The position numbers and the translations under genes are program-made. A stretch of DNA of 10,775 nt from a virus. The notes beneath the pieces were generated by a model. That model saw only the letters and a list, made by a program, of their open reading frames with translations. It searched no databases and was not told where the DNA came from. Positions 1 through 10,775 of this stretch are shown piece by piece. The stretch lies in the UHGV virus genome UHGV-1753860. One strand, 5' to 3'. Numbering within the stretch: the first letter of the stretch is position 1; every line of letters starts with the position of its first letter.

Positions 1-97
1 GAATAATTGCGATTTTTTCCTGAGGTGTTTTACGTTTACGCACCTCTTTTCCTAACAAAACGCCAGCCATCTCAAAATTAGAACTAGTGTTAGACAT
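1..97 (-). CDS. IS3-family transposase OrfA (HTH subunit), N-terminal fragment truncated by the window edge
   Basis: Minus-strand ORF from ATG at 97 (alternative ATG at 70) translates MSNTSSNFEMAGVLLGKEVRKRKTPQEKIAII. The basic tract followed by QEKIAI(I/V) matches the N-terminus of IS2 InsC-type OrfA as recalled (..PEKRRRRTTQEKIAIV..). Not in the supplied ORF track because it is shorter than 60 aa inside the window. Confidence 0.5.
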   Translation of the reverse strand, partial: MSNTSSNFEMAGVLLGKEVRKRKTPQEKIAII

Positions 98-161
98 ATA
101 TCCAAGCCTATCTCTTATTTTAAGATACATCTACTGTCTGGTATTTCAGGGGGCCAGCTCA
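1..161 (-). mobile_element. Partial IS3-family insertion sequence (IS2-like), terminal inverted repeat plus start of orfA; element continues beyond the left edge of the window
   Basis: Reverse complement of 131-161 reads TGAGCTGGCCCCCTGAAATACCAGACAGTAG, close to the IS2 left terminal repeat as I recall it (TAGACTGGCCCCCTGAATCTCCAGACAACC). An orfA-like ORF starts 64-91 nt inside the end on the same strand, as in IS2. Confidence 0.6.
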
Positions 162-284
162 CAGGAATGTTGAAAGAGTTCCTACAAGTTCATCGTCATG
201 AACATGGCGAATGAATATTACTTTCCCGTTTTTGATGGTCAGCAATACTCTGGTTTGTTCGTGTTCTGCTGTTTTCTGATGCAT
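162..284 (-). pseudogene. Possible 5' remnant of a gene interrupted by the IS insertion
   Basis: Minus-strand ATG at 284 preceded by GGGAGA with good spacing; 41 sense codons (MHQKTAEHEQTRVLLTIKNGKVIFIRHVHDDELVGTLSTFL) run exactly to the IS terminus. The stop codon TGA (159-161) is supplied by the first bases of the IS inverted repeat. Confidence 0.3.
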
Positions 285-478
285 TATTATCTCCCGTATG
301 CTTTACGCAGAAATAAGCAGGCAATATGCATGTAATTTTCACCGTATTGTGCAATAAGGCAGGCGGTCTTGTGTGATGCCATATTCTTTATAAAAGTCAC
401 AATAAAGCCTCCTGTGGATTAAGGTTGTAACAATCCCCGGCGATAAAACCGCAATAAACGTTCAGGGCATATTTGTTG

Positions 479-844
479 TTATTGCGCTAATTCTTTTTCG
501 GCAGCAGCTTTTGTATACTCACATGCAAAACTCAGAATTTCGCTGCCGAGTGTTTTCGTTTCGTGATTACTGGACATATGTAATACCTGTGTTGCATGCA
601 ATAAATGATAAACATTTACCGCAAATGAATCAGGCTCCAGACAAATGCCTTCGTAATTATCTTGCTGTGAGGTTGTTTCTGTCATTGCTCCTGAAGTGCA
701 TGCGAGCCTGTTTTTGACAATTCTCTTTTCTCTAATCACTATATCGGCAACATCTATTGCCTTTACAACCTCCGGGAGAAGTTCCGGGTTTGTATAATCA
801 AAGTCATCAACATGGAGAACAGTTATGTTTTCGAACTTTTTCAT
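479..844 (-). CDS. Hypothetical protein, 121 aa, no motif I recognise; second gene of the leftward operon downstream of the repressor
   Basis: ORF in supplied track; minus-strand ATG at 844 preceded by GAGGAA Shine-Dalgarno; AT-rich relative to the replication genes; no obvious transmembrane segment or catalytic motif by eye. Confidence 0.6.
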   Translation of the reverse strand: MKKFENITVLHVDDFDYTNPELLPEVVKAIDVADIVIREKRIVKNRLACTSGAMTETTSQQDNYEGICLEPDSFAVNVYHLLHATQVLHMSSNHETKTLGSEILSFACEYTKAAAEKELAQ

Positions 845-972
845 GGCTTCCTCAGCTGACTTATATGTTCTGCTATATAGCGAGTCTCAGAAGTGTTTTC
901 ATATTGAGACTGTTTCCGCAATGATTGATAAAAATGTTCGCATGTACCTTGAAGGGCGAAGCGGCGATTATG

Positions 973-1476
973 TCACCATTGGTATTGGTTCTTCCGCAGA
1001 AGAGCTTCGCGAGATAAGGGGCAAACTTGTTGAGATGCGTCATGGTGTTGCTGCTCCTCACTTTTTGGTTGCTCCGGAGGAGTAACCTCACCAGTTAACA
1101 GCCACATCGGATCGCAGCCAAGAATATTTGCCAGTGGGATAAGCATACTGATAGTTGGTTCATACTCTCCGCTCTCCCACTGGATGATAATTTCTTCATC
1201 GAGATCGAGCAGCCTGGCGAGTTCGGCGGTTGTTAAGCCGCAGGCTTCGCGTTGGGTGCGAAGACGGTTGTTGATTGCAGAATTTTTGTTCTGTAAAAGC
1301 ATTGCTGACGATAGCTTTCTGGATATGCTATTTGTCATATCCCATGCCAGTCCTGCGCATGACTCTATATCGCTAGAGAGCGTAGCATCAGGTGTTGCTT
1401 TTGCTATTAGTGTAATGAGGCTGCCGAGGTTTTTCAGTTCTTCGAGACAGTCAAGAGTTGTAGCTTTATTGATCAT
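973..1476 (-). CDS. HTH-XRE family DNA-binding protein, 167 aa, with N-terminal extension of unknown function and a Pro/Glu/Gln-rich C-terminal tail
   Basis: Central segment RLRTQREACGLTTAELARLLDLDEEIIIQWESGEYEPTISMLIPLANILGCDPMWLL is a classic Cro/C1-type helix-turn-helix. Minus-strand ATG at 1476 with GAGG Shine-Dalgarno 10 nt upstream. First gene after the candidate leftward promoter. Confidence 0.8.
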   Translation of the reverse strand: MINKATTLDCLEELKNLGSLITLIAKATPDATLSSDIESCAGLAWDMTNSISRKLSSAMLLQNKNSAINNRLRTQREACGLTTAELARLLDLDEEIIIQWESGEYEPTISMLIPLANILGCDPMWLLTGEVTPPEQPKSEEQQHHDASQQVCPLSREALLRKNQYQW

Positions 1477-1481
1477 GAGAT

Positions 1482-1559
1482 GATACCTCAGTTACGAACT
1501 TTGTTTTATGGTAACTAAGGTATCAAGGCGTGGCAAGTGATTTTTGATACTTTGGTTTC
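1482..1559 (-). promoter_or_regulatory. oL-like operator cluster (three 14-bp sites) with candidate leftward promoter (pL-like)
   Basis: Sites GATACCTCAGTTAC (1482-1495), GTAACTAAGGTATC (1511-1524, inverted) and GATACTTTGGTTTC (1546-1559) share the motif found in the divergent region next to the repressor start; the third differs at one position from GATACTTTGGGTTC at 2285-2298. On the minus strand TTGCCA (1536-1531), 17-nt spacer, TACCAT (1513-1508) forms a sigma70-like promoter overlapping the middle site; the first site overlaps the ribosome-binding site of the 973-1476 gene. Confidence 0.55.
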
Positions 1560-1579
1560 TTTTTGTGTTTTGTGTCTGG

Positions 1580-2236
1580 TCAGAAAATATCCCACCTGGC
1601 ATCAACCACAACACCTACTATTTCGCAATCATTGTCCATTTCTATGATTGGATATTGTGGATTAAGGGGCTTTAGAAACGCCTTTCCCATGTCAGAAATA
1701 TATTTTTTGAATGTTGCTTCATTGGTAGATTTTTTTCTGGCGATGACGTAACACCCTGAAAAAACTTCTTTATCTGGGTTGACAAGGATCGACATTCCTT
1801 CAGGAAATGTTATTCCTACGGGCGAAGTCATTGAGTCTCCGTGCACTTCCAGCCAGAACCCCCTCTCACCAGCGTATTTTACAGAATGCCTCCAATTATC
1901 CTGATCATACATGTTGTAGTCATCACCAGAAGTTGCGAATAATCCTGCCTGAACCCAGTTAATTACAGGGTAAGAGTGTGCTGTGTCTCTCTGTGGGCAG
2001 CTCTTAACATTATTTTCCCAATGCTTATCTTTTTCATCTCCGTTCTGAAGCCACTGCGGTGAACACCGCAGTGCAGCTGCAACTTTAAAAAGGGTGTCAC
2101 CGTTGAAACTTTTTGTAAGGCCTTGCTCGGCTTTACTGATTGCAACTCTGGTGACCCCAGCTTTTTTAGCCAACGCATCTTGTGTTAACCCAGCTTTTTG
2201 CCGTGCGTTGATGAGACGTTCACCTAAAGACTTCAT
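1580..2236 (-). CDS. cI: Lambda CI-type prophage repressor (N-terminal HTH, C-terminal S24 LexA-like autopeptidase domain)
   Basis: N-terminal HTH (LGERLINARQKAGLTQDALAKKAGVTRVAISKAEQG); C-terminal HGDSM serine motif and ARKK lysine region; C-terminus FKKYISDMGKAFLKPLNPQYPII closely parallels lambda CI [23 protein letters not shown] as recalled. Start placed at ATG 2236 (MKSLGERL) because of the strong AGAGGAG Shine-Dalgarno; the longer track ORF reaching 2311 has no such signal. Confidence 0.93.
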   Translation of the reverse strand: MKSLGERLINARQKAGLTQDALAKKAGVTRVAISKAEQGLTKSFNGDTLFKVAAALRCSPQWLQNGDEKDKHWENNVKSCPQRDTAHSYPVINWVQAGLFATSGDDYNMYDQDNWRHSVKYAGERGFWLEVHGDSMTSPVGITFPEGMSILVNPDKEVFSGCYVIARKKSTNEATFKKYISDMGKAFLKPLNPQYPIIEMDNDCEIVGVVVDARWDIF

Positions 2237-2260
2237 TTTTCTTCTCCTCTCATGGCTGTT

Positions 2261-2330
2261 GATACTAAAGTAACAGAATTTCTTGATACTTTGGGTTCCT
2301 GTGGTTAACATCGTTGGATAACAAAGTATC
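2261..2330. promoter_or_regulatory. oR-like tripartite operator region with candidate divergent promoters (pR rightward, pRM leftward)
   Basis: Three 14-bp sites GATACTAAAGTAAC (2261-2274), GATACTTTGGGTTC (2285-2298), GATAACAAAGTATC (2317-2330) with the same motif as the oL-like cluster. Plus-strand TTGATA (2283-2288), 17 nt, TAACAT (2306-2311) is a plausible pR; a weaker minus-strand -10 (TAGTAT, complement of 2263-2268) could serve the repressor gene. Confidence 0.55.
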
Positions 2331-2347
2331 TGGTGTGAGACTAAAGA

Positions 2348-2575
2348 ATGACCCTTTATGAAATATTAAAAATTCAATTTAAAACCAATGCCGCTATTGG
2401 TCGCAGGTTCCCAAAGAAAGGAAGGCCTCGTGGCAGTCAAGGTGTTGGAAAGTGGAAAACGCGAGGTGTTCCGGAGGATGTTGCCATTCTTTGTCATCTG
2501 GATCCGAGCATTCCATATACACACCCAAGTCTAGCGAATACAGAAGATGACAAGCCCACAGGAGACCAACAATGA
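2348..2575 (+). CDS. Small basic hypothetical protein (75 aa) in the position where cro is expected; coding status uncertain
   Basis: ORF in supplied track begins 18 nt after the last operator site and its stop overlaps the next start (ATGA at 2572-2575), but the Shine-Dalgarno is weak and I see no recognisable Cro-type HTH. Confidence 0.25.
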   Translation: MTLYEILKIQFKTNAAIGRRFPKKGRPRGSQGVGKWKTRGVPEDVAILCHLDPSIPYTHPSLANTEDDKPTGDQQ

Positions 2576-3279
2576 ACACCGCAATTTTTAACGGCAAAGC
2601 ATCCATGACCAGCGTTGAGATCGCAGAGCTGGTGGGAAGCCGACCAGATAGTGTTAAGAGAACTATTGAAACACTGGCTAAAAAGGGAATCATCCAATTT
2701 CCACAGACTGTGGAAATTGAGAATAAACAATCACTTGGGCCTCGCCGATTTTCTAGCGCGTATGTATTCGAAGGTGAACGAGGTAAGCGCGACAGCATCA
2801 TTGTCGTCGCACAGCTCTGTCCTGAATTCACAGCTCGCCTGGTAGATCGCTGGCGCGAACTGGAAGAACAGATCCGTAAGCCAATGAGCGAAATCGAAAT
2901 GGTTGCCGCGATGGCTCTTGAAGCCGTTCGCCAACAGAAACGGATCACTCAGGTGGAAGAAAAAGTCAGCCACGTTGCTGAAACAGTCGAGCAAATTAAA
3001 AAGGGCACTATTCGTGAGGGCTATGCCGGATATCGCCAACTGAAAGCAAAAACCGGTTTGTCAGATGATAAATGCCGCAATCTGGTGAACGCCTATCAAA
3101 TTCCTACAGACACACATGAGTTCATGACGCCGGACGGATTGTTGTCACGTCGCGCAATTGTTGCTGTGGAACCGTTTATGGCTGCTTTTTATCGGGTTAT
3201 GGAGGAAGCAGAACCGCGAGGGACTCGCTGGTATCACCCGAAAATGGGGTTATTTCAGGTTATTGGTTGGCAGCGGTGA
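2572..3279 (+). CDS. Rha-family (KilA-N clan) phage regulatory / antirepressor-like protein, 235 aa
   Basis: N-terminus NGKASMTSVEIAELVGSRPDSVKRTIETL and downstream RLVDRWRELEEQI fit the Rha-domain pattern as recalled (S.EIAEL.G.RHDNV.R.I, DRW.ELE). Strong AGGAGA Shine-Dalgarno 6 nt before ATG 2572. Confidence 0.75.
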   Translation: MNTAIFNGKASMTSVEIAELVGSRPDSVKRTIETLAKKGIIQFPQTVEIENKQSLGPRRFSSAYVFEGERGKRDSIIVVAQLCPEFTARLVDRWRELEEQIRKPMSEIEMVAAMALEAVRQQKRITQVEEKVSHVAETVEQIKKGTIREGYAGYRQLKAKTGLSDDKCRNLVNAYQIPTDTHEFMTPDGLLSRRAIVAVEPFMAAFYRVMEEAEPRGTRWYHPKMGLFQVIGWQR

Positions 3280-3302
3280 AAAAAAGCCGGGAGTAACCCG
3301 GC
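3279..3302 (-). terminator. Intrinsic (rho-independent) terminator for leftward transcription
   Basis: Plus strand reads A7 (3279-3285), GCCGGG (3286-3291), loop AGTAA, CCCGGC (3297-3302). On the minus strand this is a 6-bp GC stem followed by U7. No U-tract follows on the plus strand, so it is oriented for leftward transcripts and abuts the stop codon of the 2572-3279 gene. Confidence 0.6.
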
Positions 3303-3365
3303 TCACTCAACATCAATAACGGGGAGCTGTTTCGCATAAAACGGCTCCGAAACATCCAAGAACAG
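3279..3365 (-). ncRNA. Candidate leftward small RNA (OOP-like position), about 85 nt, ending at the 3279-3302 terminator
   Basis: Minus-strand promoter-like hexamers TTGAAA (complement of 3395-3400), 18-nt spacer, TATCTT (complement of 3371-3376) would start transcription near 3364; the transcript would contain the 3323-3348 hairpin and end at the U7 terminator. No protein-coding capacity. Hypothetical. Confidence 0.25.
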
Positions 3366-3409
3366 TTCTAAAGATATCAGCAGCTATATGATCATTTCAA
3401 GACCAAATA

Positions 3410-3438
3410 TTGATTCTGCAATTTCGGGACGTTAAACT
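3410..3438 (+). promoter_or_regulatory. Candidate sigma70 promoter of small-RNA module 1
   Basis: TTGATT (3410-3415), 17-nt spacer, TAAACT (3433-3438). The same arrangement recurs at 4066-4094 inside a 62-nt block that is 60/62 identical by hand alignment. Confidence 0.5.
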
Positions 3439-3444
3439 GTCTCT

Positions 3445-3521
3445 GCACCTTATAAAGCGGGTGCCGGGGGTCGCAGCCCGGAATTGTCAACGGCGATATA
3501 TGACGCGCCAGCGTCTTTTTT
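3445..3521 (+). ncRNA. Candidate small RNA 1 (about 77 nt): conserved 5' block, hairpin, single-stranded seed GUCAACGG, intrinsic terminator
   Basis: Predicted start G3445; hairpin CCGGG/CCCGG (3464-3481); seed GTCAACGG (3486-3493); terminator GACGC-GCCA-GCGTC followed by T6 (3502-3521). Seed is perfectly complementary to CCGTTGAC at 3590-3597 and identical to GTCAACGG at 3669-3676, which overlaps the GGAGG ribosome-binding site of the Rha gene at 3688. Confidence 0.5.
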
Positions 3522-3687
3522 ATCGTCCGCGCTCACGCACGCCAGAATTATGGTGGGCTGGGCAGGGGAGCCGAAAGGCTCGCCGGTCTCCGTTGACGCC
3601 GGTACTGCGAACCCTGTTCAGTCTGCCACCAGTGAGTTTCGCAGCTCCGGTGGTGGAAGTTTTTCACTGTCAACGGAGGCTGCCATC

Positions 3688-4050
3688 ATGGCTACTGTCC
3701 TAACTTCCCCATTCCTAAAAATCGAAGTCGTCAACGGCAAGGCCGTTATTTTCTCCCTGCATGTTGCCTGCCATTTCAAGCGCATGCACCAGAACATCGT
3801 TGACAAAATCGAGTATCTGAACTGCTCACGCGAGTTTTTTACCCGCAATTTCATACCGGGTACTTATCACATCTACGGTGACTCCCTGCGTGGTTATTAC
3901 ATCACCCTTGATGGTCTGATGATGCTTCAGCTTGGGTTAAGTCTGCGCACAATGCGGTACTACGAGAGCTGTATTGAAGCATTCCATGAGGCTGAAACCG
4001 TCCAGGGTCACTCCGCGTTCCGTCGTAATCAACGGGAGGTGCACCTATGA
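3688..4050 (+). CDS. Rha-family phage regulatory protein (short, about 120 aa, Rha domain only)
   Basis: MATVLTSPFLKIEVVNGKAVIFSLHVACHFKRMHQNIVDKIEYL fits the Rha N-terminal pattern. ATG 3688 has GGAGG 9 nt upstream. The supplied track extends the frame to a TTG at 3484, but that start has no ribosome-binding site. Confidence 0.75.
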   Translation: MATVLTSPFLKIEVVNGKAVIFSLHVACHFKRMHQNIVDKIEYLNCSREFFTRNFIPGTYHIYGDSLRGYYITLDGLMMLQLGLSLRTMRYYESCIEAFHEAETVQGHSAFRRNQREVHL

Positions 4051-4898
4051 TCCGCCACCAGCATATTGATTCTGCAATTTCGGGACGTTACACTGTCTCC
4101 GCACCTTATAAAGCGGGTGCCGGGCGTGGAAACCCGAAATTCAATATAGAGCACAACCGCGCTCATGCGGTTTTTTCGTGTCATGAGCATCGTTACGCCC
4201 AAATTATGGTGGGACGTGCAGGGCCAACTTCGGTTGGGCCGGGTTCTATGTTGACCGGTATTTCCACCCCTGTACGTCTCACCACCTATATGGTCGTGGA
4301 AAGCCTTGGTGGTGAGTTCATTGAATTCAACATAGGGGCTGTCACCATGACTACTCTCCCAGCCCAATCTCACCCTGAAATCACGATTATCAATGGTCGC
4401 GTTGTCACCACATCTCTTGCAGTAGCTAATTACTTTACTAAACGGCATGAGCGGGTTTTAGATAGAATTAGAAACCTCGAATGTTCCGCTGAATTTACTG
4501 AACACAATTTTGTGTTAAGTGAATACACCGACGCATCAGGCCGCAAACTCCCTTGTTACCAAATCACCCGCGACGGTTTTGCGTTTCTTGCCATGGGCTT
4601 CACTGGTAAACGTGCTGCCCAGTTCAAAGAGGCATACATCAACGCCTTTAACCAGATGGAGAAGAATTTATCTGGTGCTGACGCGGTTGATATGTCAGCT
4701 GTCGCACGAAACGCCAGAGGCGTATACCTGCATTTGCGTGAAATCCATCAAATCTGGACAAGCCAGCTTTATCCAATGCTTAAGGCCGTTGAATCTCCGC
4801 TGGCTAGCAAACTGTACGACCGTGTTGGTGATGCTGTTTTTGGCGCTGCACTTGTTGATTCCAGGCTGAATGGTTCTGACAAGGAGGTTCGCCCATGA
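4047..4898 (+). CDS. Rha-family phage regulatory protein; start ambiguous between ATG 4047 (long, 283 aa) and ATG 4347 (Rha domain at the N-terminus, 183 aa)
   Basis: Rha motif VVTTSLAVANYFTKRHERVLDRIRNLE begins about 10 residues after M4347, which fits the family architecture. ATG 4047 has a strong GGAGG 7 nt upstream and overlaps the previous stop (ATGA), and the frame is open throughout, so a long isoform or coupled leader translation cannot be excluded. The 4047-4346 stretch also holds the small-RNA module 2 signals. Confidence 0.7.
   Translation: MIRHQHIDSAISGRYTVSAPYKAGAGRGNPKFNIEHNRAHAVFSCHEHRYAQIMVGRAGPTSVGPGSMLTGISTPVRLTTYMVVESLGGEFIEFNIGAVTMTTLPAQSHPEITIINGRVVTTSLAVANYFTKRHERVLDRIRNLECSAEFTEHNFVLSEYTDASGRKLPCYQITRDGFAFLAMGFTGKRAAQFKEAYINAFNQMEKNLSGADAVDMSAVARNARGVYLHLREIHQIWTSQLYPMLKAVESPLASKLYDRVGDAVFGAALVDSRLNGSDKEVRP
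4066..4094 (+). promoter_or_regulatory. Candidate sigma70 promoter of small-RNA module 2
   Basis: TTGATT (4066-4071), 17-nt spacer, TACACT (4089-4094); paralogous to 3410-3438. Confidence 0.45.
4101..4176 (+). ncRNA. Candidate small RNA 2 (about 76 nt): same architecture as small RNA 1 but with seed UCAAUAUAG
   Basis: Predicted start G4101; hairpin CGGG/CCCG (4121-4136); seed TCAATATAG (4141-4149); terminator ACCGC-GCTCAT-GCGGT followed by T6 (4156-4176). Seed pairs with CTATGTTGA at 4246-4254 (8 Watson-Crick pairs plus one G-U) and matches TCAACATAG at 4327-4335 next to the ribosome-binding site of the Rha start at 4347. Confidence 0.45.
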
Positions 4899-5089
4899 TT
4901 AGTTACGAAATCATCATCTCCACTACGGAATACAGAAACGATGTATCAGTTCGCACGGATGTATCTGTCTGGCACCGTCGCTATAAATCCAGAAAAACAG
5001 CGGAACTGAAAGCGGCAGAGATGTGTGAAACCATCTCAATGAAAGGTAGCCCGGTTAAATACGTAACTACGGCGGAGGTGCGTCCATGA
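4895..5089 (+). CDS. Hypothetical small protein (64 aa)
   Basis: ATG 4895 overlaps the previous stop (ATGA); GGAGG 7 nt upstream; no recognisable motif. Confidence 0.5.
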   Translation: MISYEIIISTTEYRNDVSVRTDVSVWHRRYKSRKTAELKAAEMCETISMKGSPVKYVTTAEVRP

Positions 5090-5310
5090 TCCGCCACATC
5101 GTTAATTCCCTGTATCACCGATACAACCGTTGCCCCCGTGTGGGGCAGTGGTTCGCCACCAGCAACGGTCACGTTCTGCGGGTTTGCCTAGTCAACGCTG
5201 AAAGCCAGAAAGTCGTGTGCGAACTACAGGGGCGTAGCTACACCATCAGTTACCCTCTGGCGGTATTTCTGTCTGGAAAAATGTTTAAGCGTCTGGGAGG
5301 TGTGGCGTGA
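5086..5310 (+). CDS. Hypothetical small protein (74 aa)
   Basis: ATG 5086 overlaps the previous stop; GGAGG 7 nt upstream; begins MIRH, as does the 4047 ORF. Confidence 0.5.
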   Translation: MIRHIVNSLYHRYNRCPRVGQWFATSNGHVLRVCLVNAESQKVVCELQGRSYTISYPLAVFLSGKMFKRLGGVA

Positions 5311-5606
5311 ACTGTTTTCAGTTTGTGTGCGGATGTGCTTTCGATAACCCGATTCAGCGCCTGATTATGTTGCGTGTTTTGATGTCGGGTTCTTCAGACG
5401 GTGAAGGCGAGAGAGTTATTGATCATCAGGTGCTTGCTGATTTCTGCTGTTGTTCTAAGCAAGCGATATTCAGGGAAACCCTGGCACTGGAAAGAGCTGG
5501 TTATCTTCATATCCGAAAAATTGCAACGCTTACTATTGATGCAAAAGCCAGACTACAACCTGCGCGTGGCTACACAATTCTCATGCCGCGGAAGGAGGTT
5601 GTATGA
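5307..5606 (+). CDS. Hypothetical protein (99 aa), possibly a winged-helix DNA-binding protein
   Basis: GTG start overlapping the previous stop with GGAGG upstream; the segment VIDHQVLADFCCCSKQAIFRETLALERAGYLHIRK looks like an HTH or winged-helix recognition unit. Weak inference. Confidence 0.45.
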   Translation: MNCFQFVCGCAFDNPIQRLIMLRVLMSGSSDGEGERVIDHQVLADFCCCSKQAIFRETLALERAGYLHIRKIATLTIDAKARLQPARGYTILMPRKEVV

Positions 5607-6595
5607 GCCGTTACGCCCCCACACCGGAAGTTATGGCTATTGGTCAAATTAATATTTCCGGCAATGTTACACCTGCGAACTGGTGGAAATATATTCGACT
5701 ACCCAGTGGGCGTCCGGATGCGACGGCTATCGCTCTGCTTTCAGAGATCGTTTACTGGTACCGCCCGACAGAGGTCAGGGATGAGCACACCGGAGCGTTG
5801 CTGGGATATCGCAAGCGTTTTCAGGGCGACAAACTGCAAAGAAGCTACCAGGCGTTTGCTGAGCAGTTTGGTTTCGGGAAAAGGGAAACCGCAGATGCGC
5901 TGAAGCGTCTGCGCGATGCAGGGTTTATTACTCTGGATTTACGCACGGTGGAAATGCTCGATGGGGTGAAATGCAGCAATATTTTGTTTGTCGGGATCAA
6001 CCCACAGGCAATTGCGGCCATCACCACACCTTCTTCTGTTTCGCCAGAAAGTAACAGCAATAATGCAATCAGCGATACAGCTATTACGTTAAAACGGAAC
6101 ACCCCCCGACGTCATAACGGAACAGGGGATACGCCGAATGTTGATACAAATACAGAGATTACTACAGAGATTACAACGGAGACTAAAAACACTATTGATG
6201 CATCCGCTGACGCGTCTGCGCCAGCGCGTTCTGCCCGACAGGAATATTCACCGGAATTTGAACAGGCCTGGCAGGAATATCCCAAACGTGCTGGTGGCAA
6301 TTCCAAGTCAGCAGCCTTCAAAGCCTGGAAAGCCCGTATCAGGGAGGGAATAAAACCGGAGACCATGCTTGATGGCGTGAAGCGGTATGCCGCCTGGGTA
6401 CGTGCTACAGGAAATACCGGCACACAGTTCGTGAAGCAGGCTGCGACGTTCTTTGGACCCGATCGTCACTTCGAAGATTACTGGCAACAGCCAGCCGCTC
6501 ACGGAGGTGGGCGACAGCGACAGGTCGATGTCCTGGCTGGCCTGGGAGCCATGTCTGACAAATTCGGTAAATCCAGTAACAAATTGACATTCTGA
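5603..6595 (+). CDS. Phage replication initiation protein (O-like, partner of the DnaC-type loader); family assignment tentative
   Basis: 330-aa ORF with GGAGG ribosome-binding site, directly upstream of and translationally coupled to the DnaC-like and DnaB-like genes. Two-domain layout with a Thr/Ser/Asp-rich low-complexity linker whose DNA carries iteron-like repeats. Confidence 0.65.
   Translation: MSRYAPTPEVMAIGQINISGNVTPANWWKYIRLPSGRPDATAIALLSEIVYWYRPTEVRDEHTGALLGYRKRFQGDKLQRSYQAFAEQFGFGKRETADALKRLRDAGFITLDLRTVEMLDGVKCSNILFVGINPQAIAAITTPSSVSPESNSNNAISDTAITLKRNTPRRHNGTGDTPNVDTNTEITTEITTETKNTIDASADASAPARSARQEYSPEFEQAWQEYPKRAGGNSKSAAFKAWKARIREGIKPETMLDGVKRYAAWVRATGNTGTQFVKQAATFFGPDRHFEDYWQQPAAHGGGRQRQVDVLAGLGAMSDKFGKSSNKLTF
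6152..6185. repeat. Iteron-like direct repeats (2.5 copies of a 12-bp unit) inside the initiator gene; candidate origin element
   Basis: ACAGAGATTACT (6152-6163), ACAGAGATTACA (6164-6175), ACGGAGACTA (6176-6185), followed by a GC-rich near-palindrome around GACGCGTC. Lambdoid origins commonly sit inside the initiator gene. Confidence 0.35.
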
Positions 6596-6605
6596 GGTGA
6601 CAGCG

Positions 6606-7505
6606 ATGATGACGATTGACCAACGTGAGAAACAAACAAGACTACAGGCGCGAATGGATGAGTTACGGGCAGAAATGGATGAGTTACGGGCAGAGATTGC
6701 ATTTGCTCAGAAGGGCGAAAAGCCATGGCCTTATCGTTCCTGCCTGATGCGTGAAGGTCACGGATATTGCGAAAAACACGGTAAATATCGTACGCATATA
6801 CTGGTGTGGATCGATCGTAATGGCGAGGACAGAGAAAAAATTTCATGCTGCCCTGACTGCTTGATCGCTGAGGCCAGTGATTTGACCATGGAACTGTCGT
6901 CCCTCAAGGCGGAAGAACTGACTGATAACGCCGGAATTGCTCTGCGTTTTCGGGACTGCGAGTTTGATAATTATCTGGAGGTTAATCCTGACGCAGCCAG
7001 AAATCTTGCGGCCTGTCGCCGCTATGCGGAGAACTGGCCAGATATGCTGGAGAACGGTACCAGTCTTGTTATGACCGGCAGTTGCGGTACCGGGAAAAAT
7101 CATCTGGCGGTATCAATGGCAAAACACATCATCCGTAACTATCTGGCCAGTGTGGAGATCACCGACGTGATGCGCCTTACCCGGGCTGTGAAAAACTGCT
7201 GGCGGAATGACAGTGAAAAAACAGCGGATGACGTCATTGAGCATTATGCGTCACTGGATTTGCTGATTGTCGACGAAGTCGGCGTTCAGTTTGGCAGTGC
7301 GGCTGAAATGGCCATTTTGCAGGAAATTATCAATGCCCGGTATGAGGGTATTTTGCCAACTATCCTGATCAGCAACCTTTCACCGGAAGAATTGTGGGCG
7401 TTCATCAGTCCCCGGATTGCCGACAGGATCACCGATGGCGGGCGCAACTGGTTGTCGTTTAACTGGCCCAGCTACCGTTCTCGTATCGGAGGTGTTGCCG
7501 CATGA
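6606..7505 (+). CDS. DnaC-type (IstB-like AAA+) replicative helicase loader
   Basis: Walker A LVMTGSCGTGKNHLAVSMA resembles E. coli DnaC GKPGTGKNHLAAAI as recalled; Walker B LLIVDEVG; Cys/His cluster near the N-terminus. Start set at ATG 6606 (GAGGTG upstream) rather than the GTG at 6597 in the track. Confidence 0.88.
   Translation: MMTIDQREKQTRLQARMDELRAEMDELRAEIAFAQKGEKPWPYRSCLMREGHGYCEKHGKYRTHILVWIDRNGEDREKISCCPDCLIAEASDLTMELSSLKAEELTDNAGIALRFRDCEFDNYLEVNPDAARNLAACRRYAENWPDMLENGTSLVMTGSCGTGKNHLAVSMAKHIIRNYLASVEITDVMRLTRAVKNCWRNDSEKTADDVIEHYASLDLLIVDEVGVQFGSAAEMAILQEIINARYEGILPTILISNLSPEELWAFISPRIADRITDGGRNWLSFNWPSYRSRIGGVAA
6654..6695 (+). repeat. Perfect-to-near-perfect 21-bp tandem duplication inside the helicase-loader coding sequence
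   Basis: ATGGATGAGTTACGGGCAGAA (6654-6674) is followed by ATGGATGAGTTACGGGCAGAG (6675-6695); in frame, it encodes MDELRAE twice. Confidence 0.9.
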
Positions 7506-8902
7506 CCAGCCAGAACACCCCGGCATGGCGTAACGATGACCTGGAAGGCGCTGTCATCGGTGCGTTTTTTCTGCGTGGGGCCGATCCGGAAGTGATGGAT
7601 ATTCTGGCCACACTTCCGGCGGATGTATTTTTTGTGCGTCAGTACCGGGATATTTACGCGGGGATTTGCAGACAGGCTCGCATATCCGGCGTCATTGACC
7701 CCGTACTGCTGTGCAATGAGATGCCGGAACTTGCCCCGGTGATTACCGACACCGGACGCAAAACCTGGGTGAAGTCTTCACTGGAGCACTATGTCGCAGC
7801 GTTGCGGCGCAATGCCGCACTGCGCGATGCAGAAAAAACACTGACTGAAGCATTACAGAATTTACGTGATGCGTATACCTGTGAAGCAGCCGAGGATGCC
7901 CTGAAGGATGTGCAGAACATGATGGCCTCACTGTCGACCGGAAAGGGCGTCATTCAGCCGGTTCACATTGATGATGTCCTTCCGGAAGTGGTCGACCGTG
8001 TTGAATGCCGCAATCAGGGACTGGAGAAATCCAGGGCACTGATGACCGGTATTGATGAACTGGACGCAAAAACGGGCGGTATGGAGCCCGGAGACCTGGT
8101 ATTCATTGCCGCCCGTCCTTCGATGGGGAAAACCGAACTTGCGCTGGACATCATCGACAAGGTGACTGAGCAGGGGCATGGCGTGCTTCTGTTCACCATG
8201 GAGATGGCGAACATCCAGATTGGTGAACGTATGGTGTCTGCTGCCGGTGGAATGCCGGTATCCCGTCTTAAGTCTGTTGCCAGTTTTGAAGATGAAGACT
8301 GGGCGCGTTTCTCGCAGGGCGTGGGACGAATGACGGGGCGTAATATCTGGATGGTGGATCAGGCAAACCTGACCATTGATGAGATATGTGCAACCACGAA
8401 GCACCACCGGATGAAACACCCGGAAACGGCGCTGGTGGTGGTCGATTACCTCGGTCTGATTAAAACCCGCAGCACGGGGCGTCACGACCTTGCTGTGGGG
8501 GAAATCTCAAAGGGACTTAAAAGCCTGGCAAAATCCGGCGGTTTCCCGCTGATTGCTCTGAGCCAGCTCTCCCGAGGCGTGGAATCCAGACCCAATAAAC
8601 GTCCCATGAACTCAGACCTGAAAAACTCCGGGGAAATAGAGGCTGATGCCGACATCATTCTGATGCTTTACAGGGATGAGGTGTATAACCCGGATACACA
8701 GGCCAGAGGCATAGCAGAAATCAACATCACGAAACAGCGTAATGGCACACTCGGGACCATTTACCGGCGTTTTCATAACGGACATTTTCTGCCTGTGGAC
8801 CAGGAGAGTGCCCGGGTTCTTTCCACACCCATGACGCCGGGCAATCCGCGCAGATACAGCAATTACCGCATGTCGGGCAGTAAAACGGAGCGTTTATTTT
8901 GA
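7502..8902 (+). CDS. Replicative DNA helicase, DnaB family
   Basis: Walker A GDLVFIAARPSMGKTELAL; Walker B VVVDYLGLI; the hallmark stretch IALSQLSRGVESRPNKRPMNSDLKNSGEIEADADIILMLYRDEVYNP. ATG 7502 overlaps the upstream stop; GGAGG 9 nt upstream. Confidence 0.93.
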   Translation: MTSQNTPAWRNDDLEGAVIGAFFLRGADPEVMDILATLPADVFFVRQYRDIYAGICRQARISGVIDPVLLCNEMPELAPVITDTGRKTWVKSSLEHYVAALRRNAALRDAEKTLTEALQNLRDAYTCEAAEDALKDVQNMMASLSTGKGVIQPVHIDDVLPEVVDRVECRNQGLEKSRALMTGIDELDAKTGGMEPGDLVFIAARPSMGKTELALDIIDKVTEQGHGVLLFTMEMANIQIGERMVSAAGGMPVSRLKSVASFEDEDWARFSQGVGRMTGRNIWMVDQANLTIDEICATTKHHRMKHPETALVVVDYLGLIKTRSTGRHDLAVGEISKGLKSLAKSGGFPLIALSQLSRGVESRPNKRPMNSDLKNSGEIEADADIILMLYRDEVYNPDTQARGIAEINITKQRNGTLGTIYRRFHNGHFLPVDQESARVLSTPMTPGNPRRYSNYRMSGSKTERLF

Positions 8903-9156
8903 ACAACAGAACAATCACTGTTTCACCGGAACAACTTCGTCGGCAGGCGCAGGAGATGCTTCGTTGTGCTGAACAGATGGAAAAAACGAGCGTGAAAAAA
9001 GATACGCTCCGCAAGCAGCTTACTCCGGCGCTTCGTGATCTGCTGCAGGCAAAACACCGCACACAAAAGGCGGTGGATGAGCTGGTGGATTGCGTGGCGG
9101 AACTGGAAGGACAGGTAAGCCAGTTTGAAACGCTGGTGAAGGAGTTTACTGCGTGA
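8899..9156 (+). CDS. Hypothetical small protein (85 aa), predicted coiled-coil
   Basis: TTG start overlapping the helicase stop with GGAG 8 nt upstream; first in-frame ATG is at 8956; charged heptad-like sequence; no recognisable motif. Confidence 0.45.
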   Translation: MNNRTITVSPEQLRRQAQEMLRCAEQMEKTSVKKDTLRKQLTPALRDLLQAKHRTQKAVDELVDCVAELEGQVSQFETLVKEFTA

Positions 9157-9202
9157 TGGCTGAATTTTTTTCTCCTGCGTTCATGCAATACCGTTCGCTG
9201 AG

Positions 9203-10198
9203 GTGACCGTGAGAGCACTGCTGACCCCTGAAATTGCCCCGCGTATGGGGATCGTCTTGTTCAGACCCGGTTCAGAGCTGATGCCCCTGTTTATGCAGGG
9301 GCGTGTCCTGCTGGAGCCTGAGCCGGAACGTTATTCATCTTTTGCCAGTGGTGCCGTTCCGGCAGCATCACAACCGCTGGCGGATGATCCTGCCGTTCGG
9401 GCCGTGTTCCGCCATGAGGCGGTGATCCGTCGTGCTGGTGGCGTGGAATGCCTTGAGAGCTGGTTACTTCGTGAAAAAGGCTGCCAGTGGCCTCATTCCG
9501 GATGGCACAGCGAGAACATGACCACAATGCGACACGCGCCGGGCACAATCCGTCTGTGCTGGCACTGCGATAACCTGCTTCGCGATCAGTTCACGGAACG
9601 TCTGGAATCAATGGCAACGGATAACTGTGCCCGCTGGGTGTTGTCCGTAGTCCGTCGTGATCTCGGTTTTGATGACAGCCACGTTGTGACAATGCCGGAA
9701 CTGTGCTGGTGGCTGATTCGTAATGATCTGGCGGATGCCTTATCGGAAAGTGCAGCCCGTAAGGCACTGAGATTACCGAAGCCTGTTGTGCCGTCTGTCA
9801 CCCGGGAAAGTGACCTTGTGCCTTCGGTTCCTGCCACCAGCATCATCCAGGATAAAGCGAAAAAGGTGCTGGCGCTGAAAGTGGATCCGGAGTCGCCGGA
9901 GTCTTTTATGTTACGCCCAAAACGTCGCCGCTGGGTTAATGAAAAGTACACGCGCTGGGTTAAGACACAGCCGTGTGCATGTTGTGGAAAGCCCGCTGAT
10001 GATCCCCACCACCTGATAGGTCACGGTCAGGGTGGAATGGGAACAAAAGCGCATGACCTTTTTGTGTTGCCTTTGTGCAGAAAACACCATGACGAACTGC
10101 ATGCGGATACCGTGGCATTTGAAGAGAAGTATGGCTCCCAACTGGAGCTGATATTTCGTTTTATCGATCGCGCGCTGGCGATTGGTGTGCTGTCCTGA
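9203..10198 (+). CDS. Prophage nin-region protein with C-terminal Cys/His-rich domain (DUF968-like as recalled)
   Basis: C-terminus CACCGKPADDPHHLIGHGQGGMGTKAHDLFVLPLCRKHHDELH carries a CxxC..HH..PLC..HH pattern typical of a domain found between replication genes and Q in enterobacterial prophages. GTG start with AGGTG upstream; exact start uncertain. Confidence 0.65.
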   Translation: MTVRALLTPEIAPRMGIVLFRPGSELMPLFMQGRVLLEPEPERYSSFASGAVPAASQPLADDPAVRAVFRHEAVIRRAGGVECLESWLLREKGCQWPHSGWHSENMTTMRHAPGTIRLCWHCDNLLRDQFTERLESMATDNCARWVLSVVRRDLGFDDSHVVTMPELCWWLIRNDLADALSESAARKALRLPKPVVPSVTRESDLVPSVPATSIIQDKAKKVLALKVDPESPESFMLRPKRRRWVNEKYTRWVKTQPCACCGKPADDPHHLIGHGQGGMGTKAHDLFVLPLCRKHHDELHADTVAFEEKYGSQLELIFRFIDRALAIGVLS

Positions 10199-10215
10199 TT
10201 TTGTGGAGAAAGTTG

Positions 10216-10596
10216 ATGCGTGATATTCAGATGGTTCTTGAACGCTGGGGGGCATGGGCTGCAAGTGGTAACACCGGGGTGGACTATTCTCCGATCGCTG
10301 CCGGATTCAAAGGACTTTTACCATCTGCCACTAAACCACGTCCGGCCTGCTGCGATGATGACGGACTTATCATTGAAAACTGTCTTGCTCGTCTGAAGCA
10401 GAAAAAACCTGAGGAGTATTCGCTTCTCATTGCTCATTATTTGTTGCGAATATCAAAAAGACAGATAGCCAGGAAGAGAAAGAAAAGCGAAAAAGCAATA
10501 CGAATTGAGATGCAGATAGCCGAAGGGTTTATTGACGGATGTTTGTCTGTGCTGGGGGTAAGACTGGAGATGGACGACTGGCTGCTAAAAAAGTAA
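10216..10596 (+). CDS. Late-gene antitermination protein Q (small Q family, QuuD-like)
   Basis: N-terminus MRDIQMVLERWGAWAA matches what I recall of E. coli DLP12 QuuD and relatives; last gene before an intergenic region and a strong intrinsic terminator, as in the Q, pR', tR' arrangement. Start set at ATG 10216 rather than TTG 10201. Confidence 0.8.
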   Translation: MRDIQMVLERWGAWAASGNTGVDYSPIAAGFKGLLPSATKPRPACCDDDGLIIENCLARLKQKKPEEYSLLIAHYLLRISKRQIARKRKKSEKAIRIEMQIAEGFIDGCLSVLGVRLEMDDWLLKK

Positions 10597-10666
10597 AAAA
10601 TGATTAGTGCGGTCCGCAAAAAGTATGTCAGTATGTTAAGAGTGGTTACTTCGCCACACAGCTTAA

Positions 10667-10689
10667 ACCCGCCGCGAGCGGGTTTTTTT
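10667..10689 (+). terminator. Intrinsic terminator downstream of Q (tR'-like)
   Basis: ACCCGC (10667-10672), loop CGCGA, GCGGGT (10678-10683), followed by a T-run through 10689. Confidence 0.8.
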
Positions 10690-10775
10690 ATGGCTGAAAT
10701 CGGTCCAGTACAGTAAACGTGCTGGTGGCGGTGAATACCTGTCTTTCAGCTTGCTGGCTTTTTCGACAAGAGTTA

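Follow-up and report, generated by a model that had tools for sequence, protein, structure and literature searches.

Does the left edge of the 10,775-nt stretch analyzed here (the window) mark the place where a prophage has lost part of its genes, or has a mobile element merely settled there? An earlier note had recognized an IS2-like end of the IS3 family, with the start of orfA, at positions 1-161. This claim proved exact down to the coordinates and the tip at 161: all 161 nucleotides are identical (161/161, E = 5e-78) to many ISEc48 copies on chromosomes and plasmids of E. coli, a match far beyond chance. The name ISEc48, used by NCBI PGAP/ISfinder, was taken from the RefSeq label of the transposase in the matched copies, 'IS3-like element ISEc48 family transposase'. 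The matching end is carried by 744 of the 5,426 complete E. coli genomes searched and is also present on plasmids of Klebsiella and E. albertii. ISEc48 is an element of the IS2 subgroup of the IS3 family, and the window contains its orfA-proximal (IRL) end at 1-161.

Read on the minus strand from 161 to 1, the end starts with TGAGCTGGCCCCCTGAAATACCAGACAGTAGATGTATCTTAA, continues with a 49-nt leader and then with ATG GCT GGC ... up to the end of the sequence; the reverse complement of window 1-161 reads TGAGCTGGCCCCCTGAAATACCAGACAG..., followed by ATGGCTGGC..., which codes for MAGVLLGKEVRKRKTPQEKIAII. The left terminal inverted repeat (IRL, 42 nt) occupies 120-161 on the minus strand, has its 5'-TG tip at 161 and is identical to that of annotated copies, with which the window shares the tip TGAGCTGGCCCCC. 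At this tip, which ends at base 161 and reads TGAGCTGG... on the minus strand, the window shows the TG of the TG...CA ends typical of the IS3 family. The untranslated leader between IRL and orfA (71-119, minus strand) was placed by the orfA ATG of the reference copies. The remaining bases (1-70, minus strand) hold the first 23 codons of orfA (70 to 2) plus 1 nt, before the frame runs off the contig end. Starting at base 70 on the minus strand, orfA is transcribed leftward, in the same direction as the adjoining early-left prophage genes. A simple scan of the ISEc48 leader revealed no sigma-70 promoter, and no Rfam families or tRNAs were found in window 1-400.

Full reference copies whose end is identical to that of the window are 1,336 bp long. 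Their IRL (42 nt) and IRR (41 nt) are equal at 32 of 42 aligned positions, with one 1-nt gap, and show TG...CA ends. Between the repeats, the reference copies contain an orfA frame and an overlapping orfB frame, which are joined by a 'programmed frameshift' in the RefSeq annotation; orfA ends 142 codons into its open frame and the orfB frame comprises 306 codons, compared to the 23 orfA codons of the window itself. The fused orfA/orfB product of a reference copy reaches 270 bits with the NCBIfam IS3-family model NF033516 (cut-off 160) and contains the Pfam domains HTH_Tnp_1, HTH_21, and rve (65 bits for rve, the region of which lies beyond the window edge).

A variant was observed in E. coli UMNK88 (L006 2501-3837; 1,337 bp), where the copy carries one extra A at the frameshift site (CGAAAAATGG versus CGAAAATGG). 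Its orfA and orfB form a single ORF of 402 aa, such that no frameshifting is needed. Engineered IS2 mutants with fused frames are hyperactive.

The earlier note had also suggested a comparison with IS2-group terminal repeats, and here the architecture fits while the identity of the element does not. ISEc48 and IS2 are both about 1.33 kb long, have inverted repeats of 42 and 41 nt, encode orfA (HTH) and orfB (DDE) with a -1 frameshift, which for ISEc48 is an annotation of reference copies, and have kept the blocks CTGGCCCCCTGAA, CCAGACA, and CTTAA in their inverted repeats. In contrast, ISEc48 and IS2A of E. coli K-12 (L007) share approximately 70% nucleotide identity overall and approximately 63% within the first 161 nt, the IRL of ISEc48 has the tip TG and that of IS2 the tip TA, and the target duplication is 5 bp in IS2A compared to 14-16 bp in most ISEc48-type copies. 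By the ISfinder rule, isoforms share about 95% nucleotide identity or more. The best NCBIfam subfamily matches of ISEc48 are IS2 TnpA and TnpB, both of which score below their cut-offs (419.7 versus 597 and 168.8 versus 229, respectively). With these identities and these scores, IS2 itself is ruled out.

The site of the insertion can be given to the base. Window 161-10775 aligns with an IS-free prophage of E. coli JKHS016 (L001 9001-19615) at 99.95% identity, with 5 mismatches in 10,615 positions and no gaps. The insertion point lies between L001 9001 and 9002, and the boundary between IS and prophage is at window 161/162. The IS-free region is carried by 150 complete E. coli genomes. In L001, the interrupted coding sequence is an intact gene of 62 codons (8936-9124, minus strand) that belongs to phrog_340, a family of unknown function, and has no Pfam match. 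In the window, the ORF list gives a truncated form of this early-left gene (159-284, minus strand) with 41 of the 62 codons (284 to 162) and a stop, the TGA at 161-159, which is supplied by the IS tip.

The 90%-identity protein cluster that includes the 41-aa product also contains many other truncated forms (34, 48, 49, 53, and 56 aa), the majority of them situated at the ends of contigs. Breaks in assemblies, or further insertions, may be frequent in the phrog_340 region.

Judged by its sequence, the host of the insertion is a phiP27-like lambdoid E. coli prophage of the yecE-integrating type. The deposited phage PhiR49_2 matches window 162-1263 at 100% identity, and the Stx2e phage phiP27 shows 94.8% identity to window 262-2400. 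With L001, PhiR49_2, and phiP27 as references, window 161-10775 is collinear with its part of the gene order of known phages (int, xis, early-left genes, cI, cro, replication genes, and Q). To the right of the phrog_340 gene, the window encodes a 121-aa ORF, a 167-aa HTH protein and a LexA/S24-type repressor (1580-2236). To its left, L001 contains approximately 4.4 kb of early-left genes, followed by xis and int; this left arm is composed of a 193-aa gene (phrog_1515), DUF4752, Ea22-like genes, xis, and int, and is followed by a disrupted DUF72 gene. Since intact relatives carry the 193-aa gene, DUF4752, the Ea22-like genes, xis, and int in this place, the earlier view that the IS sits where the rest of the early-left region would be is borne out. 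Its placement immediately left of the immunity region has to be revised: the IS lies inside the 62-aa gene, about 1.4 kb and three ORFs away from the cI-like repressor.

In JKHS016, the integrase adjoins the truncated DUF72 (yecE-type) gene (L001 1-3246). The DNA directly beyond DUF72 belongs to a second prophage, represented by a serine recombinase gene and by genes for tail parts (baseplate, tape measure); two prophages adjoin at this site.

How the element is likely to be flanked was deduced from other copies. For 14 ISEc48-type copies, the target-site duplications (TSDs) measure 16 bp in five cases, 15 bp in six, 14 bp in one and 5 bp in one, and one copy has none. The 11 complete ISEc48 copies among them account for 16 bp (five), 15 bp (three), 14 bp (one), 5 bp (one), and none (one), while a TSD of 15 bp is found in each of the relatives at 97.6%, 88%, and 78% nucleotide identity (E. 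albertii, E. coli, and Klebsiella grimontii, respectively). The loci with duplications of 14-16 bp are L006, L008, L009, L011-L014, L016, L017, and L020-L022. Two empty sites, reconstructed with a single copy of the repeat, match many genomes at 100% over 600 nt. Thus, the repeats are true target duplications. For the window, these 14 copies and the empty site in L001 predict that the right-hand copy of the duplication, CAGGAATGTTGAAAG(A), covers 14-16 bp within 162-177.

TSDs of the IS3 family are 3, 4, or 5 bp long, and 5 bp in the IS2 subgroup (PMC10045372); most of the other ISEc48-type copies fall outside this range, the duplication of the window itself being predicted, while IS2A of K-12 shows the usual 5 bp. 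Discrete TSD classes of approximately 5, 15, and 25 bp have been described only for IS481, IS1202, and IS481EU (PMC10045372). The ISEc48-type copies resemble these in having approximately 15-16 bp and, in one case, 5 bp, classes that are about one helical turn apart. They differ in that ISEc48, with its orfA/orfB frameshifting, is a genuine member of the IS3 family. In the literature searched, with ISfinder outside the scope, no description of long TSDs was found for ISEc48 or the IS3 family, for which there are inventory mentions only. We tentatively suggest, with somewhat less than even confidence, that ISEc48 and its relatives form a lineage of the IS2 subgroup with a target stagger of 14-16 bp, occasionally 5 bp, and hence one helical turn above IS2. 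If this holds, the insertion in the window should carry a duplication of CAGGAATGTTGAAAG(A), discrete TSD classes one helical turn apart would extend from IS481/IS1202 to the IS3 family, and IS2 (5 bp) and ISEc48 (approximately 15 bp) would constitute a close natural pair for the study of target stagger in the copy-out/paste-in transpososome.

On the far side of the IS, the predicted reciprocal junction joins L001 ...8990-9016 to TGTTCTTGCCCCC..., or, with the alternative end points, L001 8900-9015, 8900-9016, or 8900-9017 to TGTTCTTGCCCCCTTATTTCCAGACAG.... A pattern that assumed a TSD of at most 11 bp, too short for ISEc48, had no match in IMG/VR, JGI metagenomes, and GTDB; the corrected pattern with a TSD of 14-16 bp had no match among viral contigs. 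Ten hypothetical chimeric ORFs spanning the reciprocal junction (TSD of 5 and 14-17 bp) were likewise absent (0 hits) from a collection of 15 billion proteins, where such ORFs, being antisense, need not be called. At the reciprocal junction, no start codon occurs in the own frame of the phrog_340 gene. The near-side junction of the window, searched by its exact sequence, had no match in IMG/VR, in the metagenomes of JGI, or among the species genomes of GTDB, and consequently these collections carry no information on the other side of the IS.

The window is the entire contig NODE_1693_length_10775_cov_8.99 of the ENA metagenome assembly ERZ1303425. As a complete short-read contig that ends in a repeat, it stops at an assembly break and not at a biological end. 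Caution is called for in reading such cases, as a contig edge inside an IS is no evidence of prophage truncation. The same origin might raise the suspicion that IS and prophage were joined by the assembler, with no insertion at this site: at about 9x the coverage of this metagenome contig is low, and the junction occurs in none (0) of the 5,426 complete E. coli genomes. However, gene calls on 31 public contigs of varied origin and assembly method (NCBI isolates, ENA, and Logan; up to 13.4 kb long) include precisely the same 41-aa chimeric product, and none of the 31 crosses the IS. In L003 and L005, the junction is the same as in the window base for base, and it falls exactly at the canonical TG tip of the element. 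An assembly chimera is effectively refuted by this recurrence, and we consider it extremely improbable.

Given a real junction, what remains to be weighed is the state of the DNA to its left. By analogy with the other ISEc48-type copies, 12 of 14 of which are simple insertions with intact duplications, the present state is probably a simple insertion as well. It is rather unlikely, if less so than the chimera, that the IS represents the end point of a deletion or rearrangement, where recombination between ISEc48 copies or an adjacent deletion would have taken the left arm and left a locked-in defective prophage. Some strains do contain more than 20 ISEc48 copies, and one of the 11 complete copies (L010) is devoid of a target duplication, as expected after inter-copy recombination. 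No complete genome combines the junction with an intact left arm, and compared with the closest relative a change at 3435 creates a stop in an annotated ORF. This change, however, may reside in an RNA leader rather than in a real coding sequence. Moreover, the predominance of simple insertions just cited argues against a deletion, as does the rest of the window, which matches a seemingly complete prophage at 99.95% identity and, in part, PhiR49_2 at 100%. Less probable still, and quite doubtful in our view, is a mere remnant, an ISEc48 cut off by another mobile element or a deletion shortly after element base 161. Truncated stubs are known from plasmids, in the form of matches of 140 nt and 106 nt and of copies cut by TnAs1 or IS100, and the contig reaches 161 nt into the IS, beyond a typical k-mer overlap. 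Yet full-length copies are much commoner than stubs among the best matches, repeat resolution by SPAdes or variation among IS copies would explain the overhang equally well, and the Logan contig L005 includes 27 nt of the IS and then ends, the pattern to be expected of an ordinary break at a repeat. The overhang of 161 nt may stem from a branch point where IS variants diverge, or from interruption of this copy itself; elsewhere, the ISEc48 copies L018 and L019 are truncated by other elements.

Taken as a whole, it is very likely that ISEc48 transposed into the phrog_340 early-left gene of a phiP27-like prophage, where it presumably resides as a full copy in a simple insertion. ISEc48 is a known IS, and its site in this known type of prophage is previously unrecorded. 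The locus enlarges the list of insertion sites of this common E. coli IS and accounts for the end of the contig at this point. From the biology of the IS3 family and of IS2, the expected route of arrival is copy-out/paste-in transposition, in which a circular intermediate with abutted ends is formed. OrfA and OrfAB, the latter made by -1 frameshifting, would act on the inverted repeats, and the circle would be pasted into the target with staggered cuts. The expected form is a full copy of 1,336 bp between target duplications of 14-16 bp.

For the prophage, an ISEc48 insertion at this site would have the following consequences. The IS would lie between the promoter and the early-left genes downstream of it, along with xis and int, and after induction leftward early transcripts would reach these genes only by traversing 1.3 kb of IS. 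A polar effect on excision is plausible, while immunity, as far as it is based on the repressor, would be left untouched. Polarity of IS2 in the early-left region of lambda is a classical observation, and it is relieved by lambda N. The classical IS2 insertions in lambdoid phages share with the present case an IS2-type element that separates the early-left promoter region from downstream genes such as xis and int and is oriented in the direction of transcription. In contrast to lambda, the phiP27-like phage encodes a 167-aa HTH protein next to cI and no evident N homologue. Should xis and int be subject to polarity, the insertion might contribute to locking a phiP27-type prophage in place.

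Further to the right, the window contains two isrK and C4 antisense-RNA modules in tandem on the plus strand, located at 3445-3521/3546-3633 and 4101-4177/4202-4289 (Rfam, 59-83 bits, above the gathering scores). The starts of the two modules coincide with a direct repeat of 79 bp (3407-3485 and 4063-4141, 91% identical). Both modules fall within annotated ORFs, each in the N-terminal 'Ash' portion and ahead of a domain of the Rha/antirepressor type. The pair looks like a duplicated antirepressor control unit similar to P1 immI, and the 'Ash' coding annotation may be spurious. At 3435, the window has an A where L001 has a C, so that codon 16 of the annotated 220-aa 'ash family protein' ORF (3388-4050) reads TAA instead of TAC (Tyr); the base lies 10 nt upstream of the first isrK match, in what may be an RNA leader and not a real gene. 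The same region varies in L004 (ENA ERZ28581431 scaffold_1639), which shares the IS junction: window 3435-4621, comprising one isrK-C4-Rha module, is replaced by approximately 100 nt of other sequence. Thus, the IS-bearing allele occurs in at least two prophage variants.
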